A DNA stretch of 63,462 nucleotides, filler included, from Sphacelaria rigidula (taxonomy: Eukaryota), in assembly GCA_964200075.2 (NCBI GenBank). It is 10 parts of 10 records of this genome, joined end to end, with 100 filler letters (N's around TTAATTAATTAA, not from the genome) between each part and the next. Parts side by side here need not be neighbours in the genome. Positions count along the whole stretch, not along the records: positions 38,139 to 44,394 come from CAXNAA020021194.1; 9 more parts are not named here. The stretch is one strand, 5' to 3'. The position numbers and the translations under genes were made by a program. Shown here one piece after another: positions 28,577-61,100 of the stretch (positions are counted from its first letter, which is position 1; each line of letters opens with the position of its first letter). Below the pieces are notes generated by a model, which was not told the origin of the DNA, did no database searches, and worked only from the letters and a program-made list of their open reading frames with translations.

Positions 28577-31500
28577 TGACTGATTGACTTGTCGTACTCT
28601 AGCTGAGCCCCCAGAGATCCAGTCATGGCCACATGATAGACGTACCTGAGACAAAACAAAACGGAAACACTCGCTAAAACAAAAAAAAGAAAAGGTAGAA
28701 GTTAACAACATAGTAGACTAAGACATACAAAGAAATGGAAGAGGCGGGAGAAAAAGAAAATAAATGACCGGCCTCGCCACATGGCTTCGGCGGGAAACAT
28801 CTTACGCAGAACTAGACTCATACCCGGACGTAAAAACCTAAAGCTCGTGAAGAAGGAAATTAATGCCCCTATTGAATACGACCGCTCCATTTGGAGTATG
28901 AACCCTCTCACCTATGAACAAACACAACACGGGTGACCACTGGGGTGCCTGCAACCTCGAATTTGGACGTCACAGACGTTGCACAAGACCTGTAACGTCC
29001 AAATTTGAGGTTACAGGCACCCCAGTGGCCTCTCATTAATGAAGCGAGGTACCACACTGCTCTGGCATACGCCGGGAGGCAAAAACACATTTATAGAGAG
29101 GAAGATGGGGAAAAGGGAGAACAGAGAGAAAACTACAGAAGTGGTGAAGTCCGAAGAATTCAGGGTAGCAGAGCAGATACAGACACACATCAGGCGGCAC
29201 CGCAGAGCCACCGACCAAGGACACGATCAACAATCGATATGGGCAAACAAGATTCTTCGATGGGCGGCCCTCGATGCAGCAGCCTCATGTTCTTGACGGC
29301 CGTCTGATCCGCGTCTGTCCGCGCGCGTCGCCACGTGTTCTCAACCTCTTCCGCTTCTTGATCGACTCTAGTATCCCATTTTCCCACCTTCTTCGTCGTA
29401 GTGACCCGACGGTATGCATCGTTAACCTCTACACCGTATCCGGACCATTTTTGTCGTACTCTTTTGTGAGGAGCAGCCCCTTGTGCAAGTAGGTTCTTCT
29501 GGAGGGTTTTCTCCCATCGCTCGGGGAGGCGGCCAGGCTCCCTGGGCCCTCGTGTGGATAACCGTCGGTTCATGATGCGCTTAGGAAGGCGTGTTCCCTT
29601 CTGCCGGACAAGGACTCCCGCGAACCAGACTTGATGTTTGCGGAGAGTCGTCTCGATACGTTCGCAGTTGGTCATCTCGGGCACGGTTCTGTATGAGTAC
29701 TGTAGCCATTTCGATCTCTCCTGCGGAATCCAACCACTCGCAGCAAGAGCGTGTGATGGGTAGTACGTAGACTGTCGAAGTCCTGAGAACGTAACGTCCA
29801 TGTGGCACATCCGTATAACAGAGTTTCTACCACCTCCCCCTGAAGCAGCCGGACTCTCAAGAATACCTGGGAGTTGGATCGATTGTAGAGTTCGGAGCTA
29901 TATTTTTGGATACGTGCCCACGCTGCGCTGATGCAGCGGTCAAGTTCGATGGACATTTTCGCATCCGCGCCGATAGCACCACCAAAGTAGACGAACTGTA
30001 ATACGTGAGAGAACCGCGTGCTTAGGGGACTGCATCGGAATTTGAACACCCCTGTGGTTTGGGTTGGGGTTAGTGTTAGTGTTGGGGTTAGGTTCAGGGG
30101 CGTGGTACCTGCAGGGACTGATCCGATTGCTTTTGAAAAGCGTCGATCCGGAGGTATTTTAAACTACGGCGTGGTCCTCTGAGCACGCGGTCCTCTCGAG
30201 CATTACACGAACTTCCCTGTCTGCTTATACCGTTGACCGGCAGCTTCGATGTGCAAGGCGGCCTCCGTGGAACTGGGTACTGACCACAGGCGCACGGACT
30301 TTGTCTTGCTCTCGGAGGCCGTCAGACCGAATTTCCGGCTGGTCATCACTACCACGGTCATCATTAGAGCAAGGTCGTCTGAGATCCTCGAGACTATGCC
30401 GGCATCGTCCGCATGAAGCATTGCCCACACCGCGCGTCGCACCTTTTCCAGTGGCGTCTCTTGCAGGAGTTCACCATCGCCACCTTTTGGCGCATCATCT
30501 AGAAAAACCAAGTCTGAGACGATGACTGGGTCCGCCGCGAAGCGCTGAACGATCTCGTCGACCAAGGCTGCACCGAAAATGTTGAACAACAAACAGCGGG
30601 GGCGAAACAAAACCTTGTCCGAGTCCCTGACAGGCGTGGAACCACGCAGATAGTTTGCCACCATCTAGCTGTAACCGAGCGCGCACACCGTCGGTAAACA
30701 TACGGATGATCGTGATCATTCGCGGCGGGACTCCGAACCGAGCAAGCACTTCCCACAGGAGCGTGCGGTTTATGGAATCGTAGGCTTTTTGCAGATCGAT
30801 GAAGCACATGTCTAGTGGAACGTTGCTCGCCCGTCCTGACTCCTGAAGTCGACGCACTACGAACATCATTCCTGTGGTCAATCTTTGGCGCTTAAATCCG
30901 CACTGCTCTTCCGGGAAGACACCTGTTTCCTCGCAGAAATTACCAAGCCTGTTGGCGACAAGTTTGCGGAGAACTTTAGCAGCATGTGTCGCAAGTAAAA
31001 TGCCACTGAGTAGGTACAACACACACTCGGTCCTACCCTTTTCTTTGTGCGGCACTTCCATAGTGACATCTTTCCATTCTTTGGGCACCTCGCCAGATGT
31101 CGAGATCACAGAGACAATGCCGTGGAAGTTGTGCAGAATCTCCAACGCCTCCCTCTCAAGTCCAAGCGTCAGGATTTGAGCAGGTAGACCATCCGGACCC
31201 GTCGCATTGCTGTTCAACATAGCTCTCAGAACCTCCTCAATTTCACGTTGGCTCGGGTCTTCTAGTGACAGCACTACCAGTCGTTGCGCAATCTTCCCGG
31301 TGACGCTTCTTTCGATAGTTGCCGATATGGCGTTCAGCAATGTGGAGAAGTACCGTTCCCGTCTCTCACTGATCCTTGTCCTGCAGTATATTGCTGTCCT
31401 TATCTCGATGTACTTCTCACTCTCGGTTGGTCATCCAGACAGTCTCCACCCGTCTTTGAGATTGTCTGTACCATCTTCTCATGTCCCCAACTCGAGTGTA

Positions 31501-37535: not shown

Positions 37536-38565
37536 TCGCGACAAAACCAGATCTACTGTTCCACATCAAGTCGGAAAACAACCGAGATCCTCCCCCCCAA
37601 TATCAAAACAAACGTAAGACAAAAATACAGCCAAAACCTAGACATGTAAACAGCAGCGTGAAGGTCGGCCACCTTACATGCAAATCAAAAATACAGAATA
37701 TATAACCAGTACGGATAGGGTAGGGTCATCAACCCCTCCATGTCACATGGAGGTTGGGGTCTCGTGGTGAGATACCCGTAGAACCCTACCAGTTATCAGT
37801 AGGCGGTGAGAGTCTGGTCAGCCATTTCCAGAAATTTCCGACATCAGGTGCAAAAAGCGCCTGATTAAGGGAAGGGGTGGACAATGCATGGCATAAATGC
37901 CAAGACCTAATGCACTTACGAAACAAAGACCTTACCGATGACCGACCACATGATCTACGAGAAGGGGCACCAAGTGGTACGTAGACTCTTGAGATCTTGA
38001 AGGATAACAGCTGGTACAAAGGGTGGGGGAATCGTTGGNNNNNNNNNNNNNNNNNNNNNNNNNNNNNNNNNNNNNNNNNNNNTTAATTAATTAANNNNNN
38101 NNNNNNNNNNNNNNNNNNNNNNNNNNNNNNNNNNNNNNTCCCCTTTTCCCTTTACGTTGCTGCTTGCTATTTCCTTTCCTTCCGGCTCCCCCCTTTTTTT
38201 TTTTTTTTGCAGTATTATCTGGTTGACGTCGGTCAAGGCCTGAGGCCGTTGGCTGCAAACAAATACAGACAAGAGTTGACGCAGCCCGAGAATGCTGATC
38301 CAATCCGCTAAAAAATGATATCAAACAAAGGCAGGTGGCACCGGAAGAAGAGATAGGTTGATCCCATCCTAGAGAGTAGGGACTCATGCCGAGGAATAAA
38401 AGTCGGGGTTATTGAATCCAACAGTATGTCGAAGAGAGGAAAATAATTTTACCGACAGTGACTGACGCAGCCCGCCCCGCTTTCCCAACCTTAATTTTCC
38501 TACCACATACACGATGTTCTATTCACCTCTGTCGTCGTTTTGTTCGAACTGTCGTATCGATCCAG

Positions 38566-38799
38566 GTAATCGCCCTGATCGCCCACCTGCGATCCAAGAA
38601 CGTGAACGGACCGTTCCTCGTAACGGCCCCCCTCGCGACGTTGCCCAACTGGGTCAACGAGTTCAAGAAGTGGCTGCCCTCCGTCGACGTGCTTCTGTAT
38701 CACGGGTCCAAGCAGCACAGGCAGGAGCTGCGGAAGACGGCCATGAAACCCCGCATGTCTCGGACGCCTACTTTCCCCGTCGTCGTCACGAGCTACGAG
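38566..38799 (+). CDS. DDM1: SNF2 ATPase HELLS/DDM1-like exon (motif Ia)
   Basis: VIALIAHLRSKNVNGPFLVTAPLATLPNWVNEFKKWLP...LLYHGSK...FPVVVTSYE, with TCCAG acceptor and GTTGGT donor. Confidence 0.88.
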
Positions 38800-39164
38800 G
38801 TTGGTTCCTGCGTGTTCCCTTGTCTTCTTCACACTTGTGTTGGCGGGTTGTTGATGTTGCCACGGCATGTAGCCGTAGTCCCCGTGGAGGTTAGTCCACC
38901 ACCTGGTAAGGTGAAGAACTTTCTCGGAAAATTATTATTTCGAATAACCCCAACCCTACTGTCTCCGTGTGTGCCTGCGTACTGTCCTTGGATAAAAAAA
39001 AGGCTTCCACTCCGCTTTCGTTTCACCTTTTGTGTTTTATCTTTTGCTCGGCTGGCAGCAACAGGTGCGTTTTTCTGCTATGACGTCCTGATGTTCTGTT
39101 CGGGATGAACTTGTGTGTGTATATATATTTGTATGCTGCATACACGCGCGTGAATGTGACTGAG

Positions 39165-39505
39165 GGCTTGGTTAATTATTATCGCGCATTAACTGGTGGG
39201 GTCATGGGTTCGAATCTCGGAGCGATCTGAGATTTTTTCTCACACTGTGCCCAACAGTGGTGAGAGCGACTATGTCGAGGGTACACAAAATTCGAACTAG
39301 TGGTCGACAAGGGAAAGGGACTGCTGAACCCCTCTCGCGATAAGAAATAAAAAAAGGCGAGCACGGCAGAAGGAACATGAAGAAAGAAAATAAAGAAAGA
39401 AAATCTCCTGTGTTGGCCTCCCTCCTGTGTGACCCTGGCTGGTGCGTGCATATATTCCGGAAGGTGTAATCGGCGTCCAGAATAGATGGGACGGCGACAC
39501 ATTAA
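39165..39505 (+). mobile_element. tRNA-derived SINE, same family as 49370-49745
   Basis: B-box GGTTCGAATC. The body (CGACTATGTCG..GGGTAC, CTCCTGTGTGACCC, GGCGTCCAGAATAGATGGGA) matches the copy in contig 8. Confidence 0.75.
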
Positions 39506-39543
39506 CTGTCTCTATTCCCTCCCGCGTTGTGCGTTGTCGTCAG

Positions 39544-39768
39544 ATATGCATCATCGATCGCGCCCCGCTTCAGGGGTACAACTGGCAGTACCTCATCATC
39601 GACGAGGGCCACCGAATCAAGAACGCCAGCTGTCGGCTGGTGAGGGAGCTGAAGAAGCTTCCGTCGGAAAACCGCCTGCTCCTCTCGGGGACGCCCATCC
39701 AGAATACTCTCGAGGAGCTGTGGTCGCTGCTTAACTTTGTCAACCCTCAGATCTTCGACGACCTCACG
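39544..39768 (+). CDS. DDM1: HELLS/DDM1-like exon (motifs II DEGH and III)
   Basis: WQYLIIDEGHRIKNASCRLVRELK...RLLLSGTPIQNTLEELWSLLNFVNPQIFDD, with CAG acceptor and GTGAGG donor. Confidence 0.9.
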
Positions 39769-40595
39769 GTGAGGGCTGCGTGTGTTGGAGGGGTGTTTCA
39801 GGTTACAGCGTGTATCCCCGGCGGGTCGTCCACTCCCATTCCGAAGAAGGGTTGGCGTCCGTTGGCAACGACGCTGTAAAACACGCCACTGATGGCTTCA
39901 GCTAGAGGATGAGGTCACCGTTTTTTTCTCGCTTGCATTTTTTTGCGGTGACCGTTACGGTGGTAGAGTTAGATCATGTTACGCGGAGTGGGAAAACCTT
40001 AAGTCCGCACCAAGGGTGTGATCGTACTGCGCAGTGTTTGGGTGGTGAGACACCCATGAGGCCGCGTAACCCGTGACTGTCCCTGGAAGTGACGATACTC
40101 AAAAATGACACCATCTTTTCTAGGCTGTCATCATTCACATGCAAGATAAATAACATCCTCAGGGCCGAATAATCTTCGCAGGATGCAGCTTACCCTTCAG
40201 GCGGAACGTTTCGGCCATTTTTGTTCAAAACACTGTTGTGGCAAGTACCGTAGGATGCGTTGTTCAAACCACCCATTTTATGAAGTTTTGGAACCCAAAG
40301 GCTTGCTCCTCAACCGGGGTTGCTGTTGTTGTTGTTGTTGTTGTTGTTGTATATATCTCGGGTCTATCCGCGGCTGGAAGGCTCCCGTAGCTCATCAGTT
40401 GCGTGTGCGACAATCAATCCATCAACCGCCGTATGAGTGCTGCGACTGATCTCCCTTTGATTTGGCTGTCGCACTTGGACTGGTCGCCCATGGATCCAGC
40501 CGTGGTCACATAAATTTTGAAATCGAGGATGAGTTGGACCAGCATCACCGCGTCCCGCCCACCCCTTTTCCAAACGACGTCTTCCTACTCCTCAG

Positions 40596-40691
40596 ATTTT
40601 CCAGTCCTGGTTCGGTTTCAAGAACATCGGGAAGGACACGAGTGTGGATGAAATCGTAGACGAGCAGCACAACTCCAAGATTGTCTCGAAG
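40596..40691 (+). CDS. DDM1: HELLS/DDM1-like exon
   Basis: IFQSWFGFKNIGKDTSVDEIVDEQHNSKIVSK, with CTCAG acceptor and GTGGGG donor, phase 0/0. Confidence 0.85.
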
Positions 40692-41307
40692 GTGGGGGTG
40701 TTTTACGTCTTTTTTATGGCATGTGTGCGCCCATAAATATATGTCTCCAGCCGTTTTCGCCCGTCTCGCGAGTCGTGCCTGACTAGACGTACCTCGGTAA
40801 TGTCCGCGCGTTTTTTGCAAGTGTATCGTGAGTGCTGTGAAATGATCAACGCGGCGCATTTTTGTTGTTGTTGCGCGATTTGAGATTCTGCTATCATTGG
40901 TACGCCTTTTCATCTTGTTTTGGTACCTCCGTTTTATTGTCAGCCGTTTTGACGGTTTACACGCGGGAGGGATCTCGCGCAACGCTTTATAGCGCTGTTT
41001 TATTGCGTTCGTGTTTGTTCTTTGTCGGTTGTGTCGGTTTTCCACGCTTCGCAGCGGATTAATTTCCCTGTCTCTTTCGTTTGCTTGTCTGCTTGTTTTC
41101 TTCGTGTCCTCGTTTCTTTTCCTTTGTTTTTTCTTGTTTTTTTATTCTAGTGCATTTTTGCGCACTTGCTACTTCTTCTCTTGCAAACCTTGCTCTTTCA
41201 CTTGCATCGGATGAGCCCCACCTGCCCTCATCGTCGGCGGTCACGCAGATTAATTACCTCGTCACCCTCTTCCATCTTTCTCACTTTGACTGTATCATGA
41301 CCTGACG

Positions 41308-41903
41308 TAACTGGCACCGGCGTTTGCCTCAGCACATAGGAGGGCACTGTACCGTTATCTCTCCCAAGTCACACTCAGGCGCAGGTGCAATCACCGCTCG
41401 TTTGGCCCCATCGATAGTACACCCATTTATATGCTTCCTCATTATGCCACTCTGCGTCCTGAACGTTACTTCCAAACTCCTGCGGTAGGACTGGGAAGGT
41501 AGCTGTCCCGCAGCTGGTGACATACCCAACCTAGCTTTCTCCTCAACGTAACCGTCGGGACCAGCGTAGAGCTGGAGAGGGTACATGATGGTGTTGCCAT
41601 ACCTTACCATGTGCCCCATGCAATCCCGATGCATCTCACACTTCACTAGCATACCCTCCGTATACTCCGTGAGCTCCAATACCTTTGAGGTATACTGGAC
41701 TCGGCATGGGCCGTAACCACCCTGTAGCTAGCGATCTTCATAGGCATGCCCAAGGGGGCGTCGTAGTACACCAACCTAGTTGGAGGATTTCCCACACCGT
41801 AGGGTGCGAGCACGGGCACGCCACTGTACTTCAGCCTGATGGTGGCAAGTCTATTCAGCGACCCCGCCTTCTTGGCCAGGCCAAGTACATGTATGTGCCC
41901 ATG
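41308..41903 (-). pseudogene. Frameshifted fragment resembling the N-terminal part of a divergent multisubunit RNA polymerase largest subunit (beta'/RPB1)
   Basis: Motifs in order on the minus strand: HGHIHV, then YRRSLEVTFRTQSGIMRKHINGCTIDGAKRAVIAPAPECDLGEI(T/V), then after a frameshift VPSYVLRQTPVP. Compare RPB1 GHFGHIEL and KSxxxRLKGKEGRxRGNLMGKRVDFSARTVIxxDPNLxxDQVGVP. Flanked by TGACG direct repeats. Confidence 0.55.
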
Positions 41904-42074
41904 TGACGAAATGGAGGTTGGTACGCTGTGTATTGGCGAGTATCCGTACGAACCAAGTGTGCGCCCAATGTTGCTCTAAGCATTCGCATATGATGCTGCT
42001 GTCTACTGGTTGAACGACAGTTTCATTACGCCTCGGTTTTTCTTCTTACACGTGTCGTCTTCCCTTCTCAACAG

Positions 42075-42239
42075 TTGCACGAAATCCTTCGACCATTCCT
42101 GATCCGGCGCATGAAGAAGGATGTCCTGGCAAACGATGGCCTTCCCCCTAAGCGAGAGGTGGTGGTCTATGCCGGCATGACTACCATGCAGCGGGGATAC
42201 TACGAGCTGGCCTGCAAGGGTGCTCTTCGGGACACTTTG
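42075..42239 (+). CDS. DDM1: HELLS/DDM1-like exon
   Basis: LHEILRPFLIRRMKKDV...LPPKREVVVYAGMTTMQRGYY, with CAACAG acceptor and GTACGT donor. Confidence 0.9.
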
Positions 42240-43070
42240 GTACGTACGGCCTGTAGATTACGGAGGATAACACCCCCAGTTTGCGTATTTTTTCCGGTCC
42301 TTCAGAAATATAGAGGAAGGCAAACATTGATTGACTTGTTAGTTGGTTGACGAAGTAATTCATTGTTGCCTACTTTCCAATCCATTACGGAGCAAGTCGT
42401 CGTTTTTCACAAGTTGGACGTGGGGAAATCAAGGTAATCCTGAACAAACAGAACTCTCGCCGATGGACTCTGAGAGAAGAAGCTGCGAAAGCCTCAAGAG
42501 AAGAGAAGATTTCAGCCCCTTTGAACTATTCTGGCAAAAACTAATGCTCACCAAAGTCCGTACCTAAAGTCTGTACTAATTAATCTCTGAGGAACAGAGT
42601 CCTACTCTCGAAGCTGTGGGTGTGAAGTATCGAGCTCTTGTGCCCAGGTTGCACCAGCATACTGAGTGAAGATATTTTGCAATAAGAAACTAGCTATTAA
42701 TAGCGACGACAATACCGGGTCCTCGTCAATGTGCTCCTCGATCACGATACGTGAAAAAAACTATCTTCTACTTTCACATTAGGTACGTTATCGGATTATG
42801 AGACACTACGAACTCGGCAAGCCGTAAATGCCACACACGTTGGGCACGCGATAACCTTAACCCTTTTCAGTTTCCCAAATCAGCCCCGATGTAAGTATGT
42901 CACTGTGAAGTGTATAGATCAACCTGGTGATGCACGACTCTGTCGCTGTTCGATTGACGCCGTTTTGGCATCAACGTTTTTGTACTGCATTGAGTACCGG
43001 GTGCGTCTCACATCGTGGCGTTAAAGCATGTTTTTATTTTTTTTGCGCTTCATTGAACGCGGGGGAATAA

Positions 43071-44285
43071 CGTTGGAAAGGCACACCGTCCTGGGCATAC
43101 GAAAACTCTGACACGCACAGACAAAAAACGCACTGGTATTGCTGCGAGATGGCATCAAGCTGGTCAGCAGTTCCATCGTGGGAGAGGACCTCCGAGCCGG
43201 TTGTCACCGTTTTTCGGAAGTCCCAGGGTTTATGTTCAACGTTTCCGGGTCTAAATCCCAAGAACGGCGTGAAGGTTTGCGCATTTGTGCCATGAGATGA
43301 GCTTGAAGCGTGTAAACTCCCAACCACTTGGTTTTAATATCGAAACGTCTGGTTCGGGAGCATCTAACTTCGAGACCCGCGAGAAAAACTATACGAGATT
43401 TTCGATTTTCTTGACCAAACGTACATATGTTCCTTGGACTGCCATGAGACACATCATATCCTTCTTTTTTCGAGGCATTTTCTACCGCCTCTCGGGGGTC
43501 TTCATACTGGGATCCCCGGAAGCCGGTAGAGAACGGAGAAACCTTTTGAGTATCTTCAGGAATACAATTTTTTCCATTCGGATCATCAGTACCTACCGGA
43601 CTGCAAAGTTTGAAGGCGATCCGAGCATTTTTACGACAGATGAGGAAATCGGTGACTTGACCGTACGGTGCAGTTTGTGCGAGATGGTGTGTTTGCGTGT
43701 AGAAACCGCCACGAGGCTCCCTGGGTCTGTGCGTACCATCACTGGAAATCACTGGATACTAGATAACGCCATGACCCCACATCACCGCAACACCATGGTT
43801 TCGGGTATAATTCGACTCCGTAGTAACCGTTTTCAAATCTGTTTTTTTCCGTTAGATTCACGATCTGTTGGCAGTTACTATGATTTGAAGCATGTGGACA
43901 TTCTAGTGAAAATTAGGCTTGGAGTTCGTATTTTCGATTTCAGTAAAAATTGGAGGGCGCTGATCGGTCGAGGTACCTTTTCGCGCTCAGCGCCACCATT
44001 GTGGCCTTGAACATAAACCCGGCTATGTCGCGCGCTCTTCAGCTGTCCATGGCGGTCAAAATGTCATCATGTTTGAGACTGTTGAGGTATTGGGCATTTG
44101 CTGACGGCACAATTTTCGGTGATGAGCGTGAACCAGCCTGAACCTTTTTTTCGGCGTATTGATGTAGGTTTCGTGCCAAACGTTCAGCTCCCAGCTCCCA
44201 GAATTCAGCTGAGAAGCTGAGAAGGGCTAGTTTATATTGGTCACTTGATTTTCGTGAGAAAATTCCGCCGAGGCCTTCCAAGGGT
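43071..44285. mobile_element. Possible degenerate piggyBac-like non-autonomous element
   Basis: Imperfect inverted ends (TAA)CGTTGGAAAGGC / GCCTTCCAAGGG(TT). The internal 241-aa ORF has no recognisable domain. Confidence 0.35.
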
Positions 44286-44679
44286 TGCATACTATTTATG
44301 GTGTTCAGAGCTTTCCCCCCCCCCCCCCCCCCCCCCCCCCCTCTTAGAGCCCTATTGCCTTCCCCCAGCCCTAATCATTTTATAGAATGTGGCTNNNNNN
44401 NNNNNNNNNNNNNNNNNNNNNNNNNNNNNNNNNNNNNNTTAATTAATTAANNNNNNNNNNNNNNNNNNNNNNNNNNNNNNNNNNNNNNNNNNNNCCCCCC
44501 GATTTTGAAAAATCAAGATTCGTGCTTGCCATAAAAGGGAGTCTTAAATCGGCGCCTGGGGCGCAGACATGGACGAAAAAACCGGTTCTGGGCAAGCTAT
44601 AATAGGAGCACTCGATACTGTCACCCCCTTGAAAATTCGAATATTGGTGTTGCTTCTAAAATCGAGTAATCAACCGTTT

Positions 44680-58177: not shown

Positions 58178-61100
58178 TGTGACGCGAGTAGGTTGCTAGT
58201 ACTGCAGTGTCTAAATGCTGTTGAGGGACTCCCCAGTTCCACTGGCCTCAAGGTCTTCGTTGTCAGCCTTCACAACACCTTATCATTCCCGGAGTAAACA
58301 GCTGCAGCCCCGTACCGTCAGGCTTGGGCTACACAGCAAGGGTCATCATCCACAGGATGCCCTTGTCCCCTGGTCATCATCCAGGATCCACTATATACTC
58401 AACGTGACGGCGTGATTTCGCCACAGCACCCCCAAAGCGCGTTGGACGAGGAACGAGCAACAAGCTTGACACTAAAAAAACTAACGCCAAAACGATTGAG
58501 CAAGTCGCAACTGAATCCCACTATCGGCGTACGATCATAACGACGTCGGTACACTGTATTGAGCGCCCATTGCACCGGCGGCAACACGCCCACCCACTCG
58601 GAAACCGCTCTACGCTGCTTGAGAAGAACAGATCGAAGAACGAAGTACGTCCTTGACCATGCGTTCGCACATACCGTCAGACCACGGAGAATACGCTACC
58701 ACAAACTGGTGATCAACGCGCAAAGCCTCTCGCAATCGGGCCAAGATCGCTTTCTTGAAATACGTGTCGGCATCACTCACCCACACACGGGGCACCCCCA
58801 AAGTTTTGCACCAATTCAGAAAAGACGCAGCAGTTGATTCAGCAGTACACACTGCTACTGGTTCCAGAGCCACAAAGTTGCTCAAATCATCCATGATTAC
58901 CAAAATGTATCGAAACCCCGCATCCTCCGATAAACCTTGGGAAGCTAGCGCGCCATTCACGTCCACGTACAAGAGGTCAAGATGAACGACTTCATTCGGC
59001 GTGGTCCCATGGACCGTTTCGCCGAGCGTGCGGGGAACAACATCGCCCGCCCTCGAGTCAGCACAGTGAAGACACTGGCGGACAATTTTTCGCACATGAG
59101 TTTCTATCCCCTGTCAGACACAAAACTCTTGCAAGCGCACGAGCGTCGCAGCCACACCACGATACCCAGCGTCGCGCATGTGCGCGCAAATCATCAGACG
59201 TACCTGCAACAGTTAACTGGTTGTCAGAACTCGGAATCCACAAAACGTTTCGGCCACGCACATGCACGCGAAACAGACCTTCATTATCCAAGATAGCAGT
59301 ACCAACGTCCGACTCGAAAGATAAGACATCCGCATCGTCGGCCCCAAGGTATTTTCGTTGCGCTTGGCGAACAACAGATTTGGACGGCATCGAGTCATCA
59401 GGTTCGCACGGACCATACACAGCCACAGTACGCGCAGGCAAAGTGGGAACATTTACCCAGCGCGACAGCAAGTCATCCCACGCGTTACGTTCACCCCAAA
59501 TCTGACCAATTGTGTACCGATATTGGCCTAGTACACCTTTCCACCCCTCCGATCGCTGTGCCAACGCTCTCGACACAGACGTCACGCATGCCTCCGGGTT
59601 GAAAATGTACGCTAGATTTCGATGATCCGTGAAAATGTGTACGCCATTCCACAATAGATGCTCAAGACGACGAAAAGTGCGATAGCAAAACCTTCCTTGT
59701 CAATGGTTGCCCAACGCATCTGTGAACCCTTGAAATTACCTCTCAGAAAAGCCAGCGGTTCATGCGTCATGTCTTCAACCGGCAACCGTTGTTGCATTTT
59801 TGCATCAGGTACCTGCATTACAAACTACCCCAATGGCACTCAAATGCATCCGGAAACATTGACACCTGACAATCAGGACGAGGATGGGGCAACGTCACTG
59901 CATCAGCCATCAGATCCTTCGCTGCCGCCCATGCCTGCAGCCTGCCCTCCGTCCACGATGCAGCCTTCTTCGGAAACCCCATATCTGGACTGGACCACCC
60001 CGCCTGCAAATTCCGTGACACCAACCCGAGCGCCAAAAGAGCCGCCATGCACAATGCCAACCAACTCGGCTTCACTGGATCGTACCGCCGCGGCTTCGTC
60101 TTCACCGCGGACGCCCCAGGTTCTAGCTGAACACGCATGGGCTCCACGCGCGCAGGGGGATCAACCCGCAGCGCACGACGAAACGTGTTGACGCGGCAAT
60201 GCAATATGCCGCGCAGGCGCTCCGCTTTTGAGACGCTGAGGTTTTTCGCCCCAGCATCCGTCACGCTCTCCTCTGGCGCGACTTTCCGAGCGGACTCCTC
60301 TTCCGCCGGATCAATAAATATCTCCGCGTCGCGCTCTACCAAGCGTTCCACAGCCGCACCCCGCTCCTCGGTCACCTGCCCTCCATCCTCCTGAAAAGCA
60401 TCCACCGACAAGCTCACGCGACGACTGCCCAAAACGGCGCGCGTCTCTTAGCGTGGACCAGGCGGAGACATCCGCGTCTTCATGGAGTCTCACAACCGCC
60501 GAGCGTTGACTCCCATATCCTGAACCATCGGCAACCCCAGAAGAATAACGCCATCCGACTCCGGCATGATCGCAAACGAGATAGGAGGCAACTGCGCCGG
60601 CCCCCAGGAAGTCATCAAAGTCAGCTGCAGCGGAACAGTACTCTCTGTGACGTAAACATGCTGACCCGACGCGGTGACGGCCTGCCGCGCCCCGAGCGAA
60701 GATGGAGTGGGCAGCGGCACACCCGGGAGAAGACGCTCCAACATCTCTACAATCTGTACCGTCAGACTCGCATGACCCGTCCAGTGGGCGCCAGAATCTC
60801 ACTTAGCCTCTACCGCAATGGCTCCCAGCGCCTGGTGATTCGGGAGATATATCTCTGCAGGAATGCATTTGCCTTGATACTCGACCGGCACCTGCTCCGC
60901 CAACTGATGGGTCGTGATCTCCACTTGACGCCACGCATGCGCGCGCGGCGCAGGCATAGACGCCCCCGCTGGGGTCACCGGCACCACCGGCGGGTACGAA
61001 GCCCCGCCCACAGAACCAAATTGTAGCGGTACTCCGGCCGACGCAGCTGCGGATCCAAATTTTAGCTGAGCACCGGCCGGCTCCGCAGCAGGCGTCTCGC

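Follow-up and report, generated by a model that had tools for sequence, protein, structure and literature searches.

Within an intron of a SNF2-family gene of the alga Sphacelaria rigidula, the strand opposite to the gene reads like protein, which raises the questions of what this segment encoded and where it came from. The locus lies in a stretch of 63,462 nucleotides (nt) of assembly GCA_964200075.2, hereafter the window, which joins ten parts of ten records; positions 38,139 to 44,394 come from CAXNAA020021194.1, and all coordinates count along the window. The original prediction took the segment for the relic of a divergent, compact gene of the beta'/RPB1 type, that is, for the largest subunit of an RNA polymerase (RNAP), left by a virus, linear plasmid or selfish element. 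Our analysis gives a probability of about 0.8 that the segment from ~41199 to ~41795 on the minus strand is an inert remnant, present in a single copy, that corresponds to the 5′ third of a gene from a compact beta'/A'/Rpb1 family.

On the minus strand, ~41199-41975 is protein-like in successive frames, the aligned parts contain no internal stop, and the coding-like segment with its quoted peptides was found where it had been predicted. The central open frame (41332-41727; 132 amino acids (aa)) carries KCEMHRDCMGHM and, ~55 residues further on, FRTQSGIMRKHINGCTIDGAKRAVIAPAPECDLGEITV. The frame after it reads VPSYVLRQTPVPVTSGHDTVKVRKMEEGDEVINLR, and a further shift leads into PPTMRAGGAHPMQV. 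Three frameshifts, all of the same sign, lie near 41700, 41350 and 41243; the earlier count of about two holds for the shorter span then considered, which contains two of them, but not for the full relic.

When the central frame was compared with 1.84 billion cluster representatives by phmmer, eight matches were obtained at E<=0.001, five of which belong to one family. The core of the relic matched P0001 (E=7.4e-15, 43% identity), P0002 (9.8e-12), P0003 (1.2e-7), P0007 (7.6e-4) and P0008 (8.5e-4). The matches to P0004-P0006 (1,591-2,195 aa) were rejected as spurious: these are repetitive bacterial surface proteins of the CHU_C/SprB/SdrD type without an RNAP domain, and they align only to query residues ~70-132. 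Searching the window by tblastn, P0001 was 40% identical to the relic over 120 residues (E=9e-23), and the pieces recovered were collinear with residues 56-152, 145-186 and 187-200 of P0002 in three frames. A hidden Markov model (HMM) of nine family members, from which the window sequence was left out, was run on the 2,794 open reading frames (ORFs) of at least 12 aa in the window. It matched the second frame of the relic at E=7.1e-24 (family positions 43-147) and the third at E=4.2e-5 (positions 146-183), and the next best ORF scored 4.4. Identity between the relic and the compact family was 36-43%. The significant matches together with the collinear pieces indicate that the relic is real. 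Chance open frames in intron DNA would agree with the empty Pfam result given below and with an N-terminal frame and a 14-residue last piece that are not significant alone, but this explanation is refuted by the phmmer value obtained against 1.84 billion sequences, by the independent HMM and by the three collinear frames, and its probability is negligible.

The core of the relic in the second frame (41350..41664, minus strand, as are all of its pieces) runs from a clamp-type H..C.GH motif through GK.G.R / R.VI.P. Within it, CEMHRDCMGHM (41608..41640) is the counterpart of the family H..C.GH and takes the place of the canonical zinc/clamp CPGHFGH; the H, C, G and H are invariant in the family alignments, and the alignment to the canonical 'kdCpgh' is not significant alone. 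HGHIHVLG (~41877-41900), which had been proposed as the clamp motif, has no match in any relative, and its position is upstream of where the aligned N-terminus begins; the equivalent is KCEMHRDCMGHM at 41608-41640. Likewise, the proposed distance of ~140 aa from GHI to the catalytic double-psi beta-barrel (DPBB) gives way to a motif spacing of ~55 residues. The peptide FRTQSGIMRKHINGCTIDGAKRAVIAPAP (41377..41463) is read as a degenerate form of LKGKxGRFRxNLxGKRVDxSxRSVIxPDP, which precedes the catalytic barrel, on the basis of a domain match to the canonical profile (E=0.0098), a match to yeast RPA190 and the alignment of family profile positions 107-162 with positions 297-352 of archaeal Rpo1N.

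The third frame, VPSYVLRQTPVPVTSGHDTVKVRKMEEGDEVINLR (41243..41350), is also aligned by tblastn with residues 145-186 of P0002 at 43% identity and crosses a TGACG at 41303-41307. A fourth piece, PPTMRAGGAHPMQV (41199..41240), corresponds to P0002 residues 187-200 (PPCLWIGGVQPMRV) and marks the end of the homology; its only support comes from the sum statistics of tblastn, where it is the third of the collinear segments for four of the nine queries (P0002, P0008, P0016 and P0027), and is too short to score alone. At the opposite end, GNPPTRLVYYDAPLGMPMKIASYRVVTAHAESS in the first frame (41694..41795) is a weak candidate for the N-terminal part: one pairwise comparison aligned it collinearly with residues 6-39 of P0002 (E=0.48), and the family HMM missed it. 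Of the roughly 620 residues of the family, the relic spans approximately the first 200. No further piece of it was found in the window by the family HMM or tblastn.

The insertion had been predicted to be bounded by TGACG direct repeats at 41303-41307 and 41904-41908. As a target-site duplication this pair was rejected: homology crosses the lower copy and continues to ~41199, and the pentamer is common in the window (158 observed vs ~135 expected). Similarly rejected was a 14-nt direct repeat (40720-40733 and 41954-41967, 13/14 identical) that brackets the relic together with a purine-rich tract; it is at chance level, since 11 of 40 block-shuffles of the intron yielded at least one such pair. 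Directly below the truncated end of the relic, at 40900-41200, the plus strand is strongly T-rich (AT skew down to -0.77, G+C 40-47%), which on the strand of the relic is an A-rich tract after the broken gene.

The relatives reveal what kind of protein the complete gene would have encoded. P0001 has 119 aa, P0002 252 aa, P0003 586 aa, P0007 609 aa and P0008 627 aa, and intact members range from 586 to 649 aa. Four of the five pass the Pfam cut-off for RNA_pol_Rpb1_2 (25.3 bits), namely P0002 (61.8), P0003 (41.1), P0007 (37.3) and P0008 (38.4), and the 119-aa fragment P0001 falls below it; at E<=10 this domain was matched by 9/9 members of the nine-member alignment. Catalytic loops are present at the expected place, as AADYDGDE in P0002, NMDFDGDE in P0003, NADYDGDE in P0007 and NADFDGDE in P0008. 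P0001 lacks the first Cys of the clamp-type motif and ends where the window copy is frameshifted, and P0002 stops soon after the catalytic loop. A profile of the five members matched 119 distinct PDB sequences at E<=0.001, and the 60 best matches shown were all RNAP largest subunits, led by archaeal Rpo1N (2.7e-17) and followed by Rpb1 (~2e-16), RPA1 (2.4e-16) and bacterial beta' (~3e-12 and weaker). Profile-profile alignment by hhalign with 13 canonical A'-type subunits gave a probability of 98.9% (E=1.8e-17) over family columns 106-265. The family members share only 19-34% identity with one another, and throughout the family the H..C.GH and GK.G.R motifs are ~55 residues apart vs ~235 in archaeal Rpo1N. 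The prediction of a divergent compact beta'/RPB1-like gene is thereby borne out, in that relatives of 586-649 aa carry RNA_pol_Rpb1_2 and a DxDGD-type loop; rather than running into an unrelated domain, they continue into the Rpb1 domain-2 double-psi barrel with NADFDGDE, NADYDGDE or NMDFDGDE.

A direct comparison of the relic with canonical polymerases pointed in the same direction. Searched with a canonical A'/Rpb1 profile of 13 sequences, the central frame was the top of the 2,794 ORFs of the window (E=0.0032; next 4.8), which agrees with the earlier recognition of ...RTQSGIMRKHINGCTIDGAKRAVIAPAPECDLGEITV / VPSYVLRQTPVP as the pre-DPBB motif of RNAP largest subunits. The profile aligned QSGIMRKHINGCTIDGAKRAVIAPAPECDLGEITV, in which both invariant lysines of GK..GK are replaced, and the pre-barrel motif follows the clamp GH motif in the right order. 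Residues 448-497 of yeast RPA190 matched the relic at E=0.19 (phmmer, PDB), and the phage RNAP family phrog_2987 at E=0.18, the sole PHROG match for the three frames. Elsewhere in the window, a 47-aa frame at 59726-59866 (plus strand) contains HVFNRQPLLH, which resembles the NRQPxLH of RNAPs; with E=4.8 and unrelated flanks it is probably a chance match.

These comparisons also bear on an origin from the alga's own known polymerases, either as a nuclear copy of plastid rpoC1 or as a pseudogene of host Pol I/II/III. The length of the family is near that of cyanobacterial/plastid gamma/RpoC1 (PDB chains of 624-625 aa, E ~1e-10), and 'RKH' is common to the relic and RPA190. However, bacterial-type subunits match the family worse (1e-10 to 1e-12) than archaeal and eukaryotic ones do (1e-16 to 1e-17), Pfam domains 1 and 3, which are expected of any rpoC1 or Rpb1, are absent, and with the compact family the relic shares 36-43% identity, as against a marginal match (E=0.19) to RPA190. 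An organellar or Pol I/II/III origin is therefore extremely improbable, and the original prediction had also dismissed a host Pol I/II/III pseudogene, a judgement with which the lack of Rpb1 domains 1, 3, 4 and 5 in the relatives agrees.

Several results weigh against the identification of the segment as a fossil of a compact RNAP gene. None of the three relic frames matched any Pfam family at E<=10, so the profile check that had been suggested for Rpb1_1 and Rpb1_2 gave nothing on the relic itself, and its identity as an RNAP rests mainly on transitive homology through the family together with marginal direct matches. The catalytic NADFDGD loop is absent, as homology stops at ~41199 (family position ~200), ~30 residues short of it. 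The two nearest relatives, P0001 and P0002, are both short and may themselves be further relics in other eukaryotic assemblies. In the family, the C-terminal half of ~350 residues has no demonstrable similarity to anything: its similarity to the bridge helix and trigger loop was not significant by hhalign (probability 0.4%, E=0.17), with a top alignment that pairs 'sGYlGR' with 'SGYLQR'. An AlphaFold2 model of P0008 from a 9-row alignment was unusable (mean pLDDT 43, pTM 0.31). Language-model neighbours of residues 265-627 in the ESM Atlas carry Rpb1_5 with scores of 0.79-0.84; as all such neighbours scored <0.9, they are treated as leads only. With regard to the missing loop, the fragment is truncated, so that the absence is one through loss. 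Three frameshifts and an end ~30 residues before the catalytic loop mean that the relic cannot encode an enzyme.

The host intron that contains the relic was delimited from the sequence reading and its in-frame flanking exons. It is 1,383 bp long on the plus strand, beginning with GT at 40692 and ending with a polypyrimidine tract and CAG at 42074 (40692..42074); the relic lies antisense within it and takes up ~43% of its length. The intron is preceded by a small putative SNF2 exon of 96 bp, IFQSWFGFKNIGKDTSVDEIVDEQHNSKIVSK (IFQSWFGF...; 40596..40691, plus strand), which is suggested by frame and splice consensus and fills the gap at SNF2 profile positions 187-207. It is followed by the next predicted SNF2 exon, LHEILRPFLIRRMKKDV... 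(42075..42239, plus strand, with an approximate end; Pfam SNF2-rel_dom E=1.5e-9). Further upstream lies the exon reading DEGHRIKN ... NPQIFDDLT (39433..39768, plus strand; SNF2-rel_dom E=1.3e-25), whose 5′ end is the start of the open frame rather than a mapped acceptor and after which a splice donor is read; the splice sites are predicted. The SNF2-rel_dom ORFs on the plus strand, at 38416-39105, 39433-39876 and 41994-42347, correspond to profile positions 32-113, 115-187 and 207-250.

These matches firmly assign the predicted host gene to the SNF2 family. The best PDB matches of exon 39433-39768 are HELLS (7.5e-28), DDM1 (2.7e-23) and ISW1 (9.6e-22), and exon 42075-42239, which is too short to discriminate subfamilies, matches SMARCA5 (7e-9) and HELLS (1.8e-7). 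The predicted location in a HELLS/DDM1 intron thus stands as far as the position between two SNF2 exons is concerned, with HELLS and DDM1 as the best structures for one exon, while the subfamily, judged from the two exons compared, is only probably HELLS/DDM1. In the preceding SNF2 intron, 39400-39506 and 39828-40255 are very high-copy repeats (summed depth 10^4-10^6 vs ~75 in single-copy flanks of run X1). Alternative joints and loose ends are numerous there, and the repeats are probably short dispersed repeats or elements resembling miniature inverted-repeat transposable elements (MITEs). At 40319-40351 and 40862-40873 there is a GTT/TTG run, which gives poly-Cys, poly-Val and poly-Leu in the three plus frames, and contigs appear to be cut there. 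Pairs of 44-base N runs recur in the window with a period of 6,356 bases (e.g. 38039-38138 and 44395-44494; 812 N in total); they resemble masking rather than assembly gaps, and none of them touches the relic.

Public contigs compared over 39400-42600 place the relic in this host DNA. The region 40577-42600 has a uniform single-copy depth, and in run X1 one 2,685-nt contig spans 40360-42600 with 0 differences and a depth of 74.8, equal to that of the flanking exon. In run X5, an algae metagenome from a different study, the relic is joined to the same flanks at ~1% divergence (7 differences over 40360-41376 and 14 over 41428-42600). The best-matching run may be the source sample itself, and only X5 was counted as independent. 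In runs of two studies, single contigs at single-copy depth thus join the relic to SNF2 exons, which indicates that the fragment, disabled by its three frameshifts and its truncation, is embedded in host DNA. Other copies of the relic were not detected in the window by blastn, tblastn or the family HMM.

Where the fragment came from depends on who carries the family today. Its only named members are a 'hypothetical protein' of Chytridiales sp. JEL 0842 (621 aa, on a contig of 27 kb) and one of Zopfochytrium polystomum (341 aa, shortened, on a contig of 33 kb), and the unnamed members come from SRA assemblies and ENA metagenomes, where P0003 is encoded on a contig of 16 kb, P0007 and P0009 on contigs of 17-18 kb, and P0008 and P0015 on contigs of 6-10 kb. 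One 90% cluster comprises 21 sequences with intact ORFs of 627-649 aa on several contigs, and there are only five family clusters (50% identity) among the 1.84 billion representatives. Word searches of open-access text found no description of the family, which in the databases consulted is annotated as 'hypothetical protein' at most, and the available part of a report on Mycodnaviridae, the giant viruses of chytrids (PMC13533422), makes no mention of these chytrid strains or of RNAP.

Our best guess, for which the evidence is circumstantial and which we consider somewhat favoured, is that a virus or selfish element donated the fragment, because the distribution is patchy (alga and chytrids), the members are uninterrupted ORFs, they share only 19-34% identity, and what is left here is a truncated piece that lies antisense in the intron of another gene. 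Under this proposal the donor would be a virus, a plasmid-like element or other mobile DNA with its own minimal transcription enzyme, and a fragment of it might have been captured in the intron, for example during break repair, to be removed from then on together with the intron. In two-barrel polymerases, the aspartates of NADFDGD hold the active-site magnesium. Those of NADFDGDE in the living relatives would likewise bind the catalytic magnesium, as judged from the superfamily, and the living enzyme would need a beta-like partner for the second barrel, unless its own C-terminal half supplies it. More specifically, the relic may stem from eukaryotic DNA viruses, or from selfish elements resembling plasmids, of a lineage not yet described, which would transcribe its own genes with a minimal RNAP of the multisubunit type whose catalytic subunit has ~600 aa, would have entered hosts as distant as an alga and chytrids, and would still be alive in the environment. 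We regard this version as tentative, at slightly less than even odds; its last part is based on the intact ORFs that recur on several metagenome contigs, including the 21-member cluster.

Searches for the family in viral and environmental collections count on the other side. IMG/VR yielded only remote giant-virus RPB1 with 20-41% identity over short parts, or nothing, in pattern-based scans that can miss diverged relatives; scans of the same kind found no relative in JGI metagenomes, and a tblastn search with P0007 found no match in 50,697 phage records. An IMG/VR candidate, loci L075-L078, was rejected as a phage capsid-like ORF that shares 'DGSIRMVI' by chance. Moreover, all relatives that carry a name come from nuclear assemblies, those of two chytrids, which also fits a cellular family. 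The main rival explanation is built on these same results: the family would be cellular, a paralogue of the largest RNAP subunit that has diverged in the nuclear genomes of some eukaryotes, and the relic, whose G+C of 53-58% is host-like, would be a decayed host copy. However, a cellular paralogue sits poorly with a distribution limited to an alga, two chytrids and a few metagenome and SRA assemblies, in five clusters among 1.84 billion, and with members called as uninterrupted ORFs that are extremely divergent from one another. It also sits poorly with a relic that is a truncated antisense fragment in the intron of another gene. We consider the cellular explanation unlikely.

Integrated giant viruses occur in algal genomes, and an integrated member of Nucleocytoviricota, including phaeovirus-like ones, could have left a decayed RPB1 homologue here. 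In IMG/VR, the family was matched by nothing but RPB1 genes of giant viruses: of 591 candidate stretches, 231 aligned by tblastn at E<=1e-3, with 20-29% identity over residues ~111-261. However, these matches are confined to the universal barrel, archaeal or eukaryotic subunits resemble the family at least as closely, and the true relatives have 600 aa as against the 1,400 aa of RPB1. The surroundings argue against such an origin as well, because among the 106 ORFs scanned at 30-52 kb the sole matches were SNF2 and a single RVT_1, with nothing else virus-like, and the relic is isolated, ~600 bp long and at single-copy depth. An integrated giant virus is hence a distinctly improbable donor. The RVT_1 match (Pfam E=3.7e-10) is a 311-aa frame at 30498-31430 (minus strand), a retroelement remnant that lies ~8 kb before the SNF2 gene in window coordinates.

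By the motifs and profiles described above, the family belongs to the multisubunit RNAP superfamily as a beta'-like protein of minimal size, of which the alga shows only a fossil. With the cellular largest subunits (beta', A'/Rpo1N and Rpb1/RPA1/RPC1) it has in common the barrel NADFDGDE, the GK.G.R...R.VI.P motif and the N-terminal C..H..C.GH, the last two of which are kept in the relic. In contrast to archaeal A' with 880 aa alone and Rpb1 with 1,400-1,970 aa, the family has ~600 aa; compared with canonical subunits it is without ~180 residues between the GH and GK.G.R motifs and ~40 more before the barrel, and Pfam domains 1, 3, 4 and 5 (none of which was detected by Pfam in family members), the bridge helix and the trigger loop are not demonstrable.

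Small or unusual enzymes of this superfamily are found in several mobile elements. LEF-9 of baculoviruses and nudiviruses (PF05094), which have arthropod hosts, is a beta'-like protein of ~500 aa in a four-subunit viral RNAP. The family resembles it as a small beta'-like catalytic subunit, and a LEF-9 cluster is a language-model neighbour of P0008 (rank 5, 0.85, 171 shared features; a lead only), but PF05094 was matched by 0/9 family members at E<=10, and the family keeps the canonical NADFDGDE. The large subunit of the RNAP of pGKL2 is a beta-beta' fusion of ~970 aa that works with a small subunit encoded separately. Unlike this fusion, from which it is set apart by description, the family has the look of a beta'-like protein that stands alone. 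Such yeast cytoplasmic linear plasmids (K2ORF6/K2ORF7 of pGKL2) provide, according to the accessible part of the source, an example of a minimal non-canonical RNAP of the multisubunit type on selfish fungal DNA (PMC6211774). Jumbo-phage beta'-like proteins (PHROG 2987/2986) are also diverged and shortened, and phrog_2987 matches 9/9 family members (best E=6.4e-11); however, the jumbo-phage families match no better than cellular subunits do, and the named relatives of the family are eukaryotic. YonO is a single-chain two-barrel RNAP.

The relic does nothing itself, and its value is as a pointer to a very small beta'/Rpb1-like family. For annotation, it illustrates that Pfam misses fragments of this kind altogether and that only relatives from metagenomes bring them to light. 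LEF-9, the killer-plasmid RNAP, YonO and the jumbo-phage enzymes are each informative on what the two-barrel core requires, and a 600-residue, eukaryote-associated version would add a data point to them. The family may also flag viruses or mobile elements of a new class that live in algae and zoosporic fungi, and if the proposed lineage is real, its catalytic subunit would not reach half the size of any cellular counterpart.

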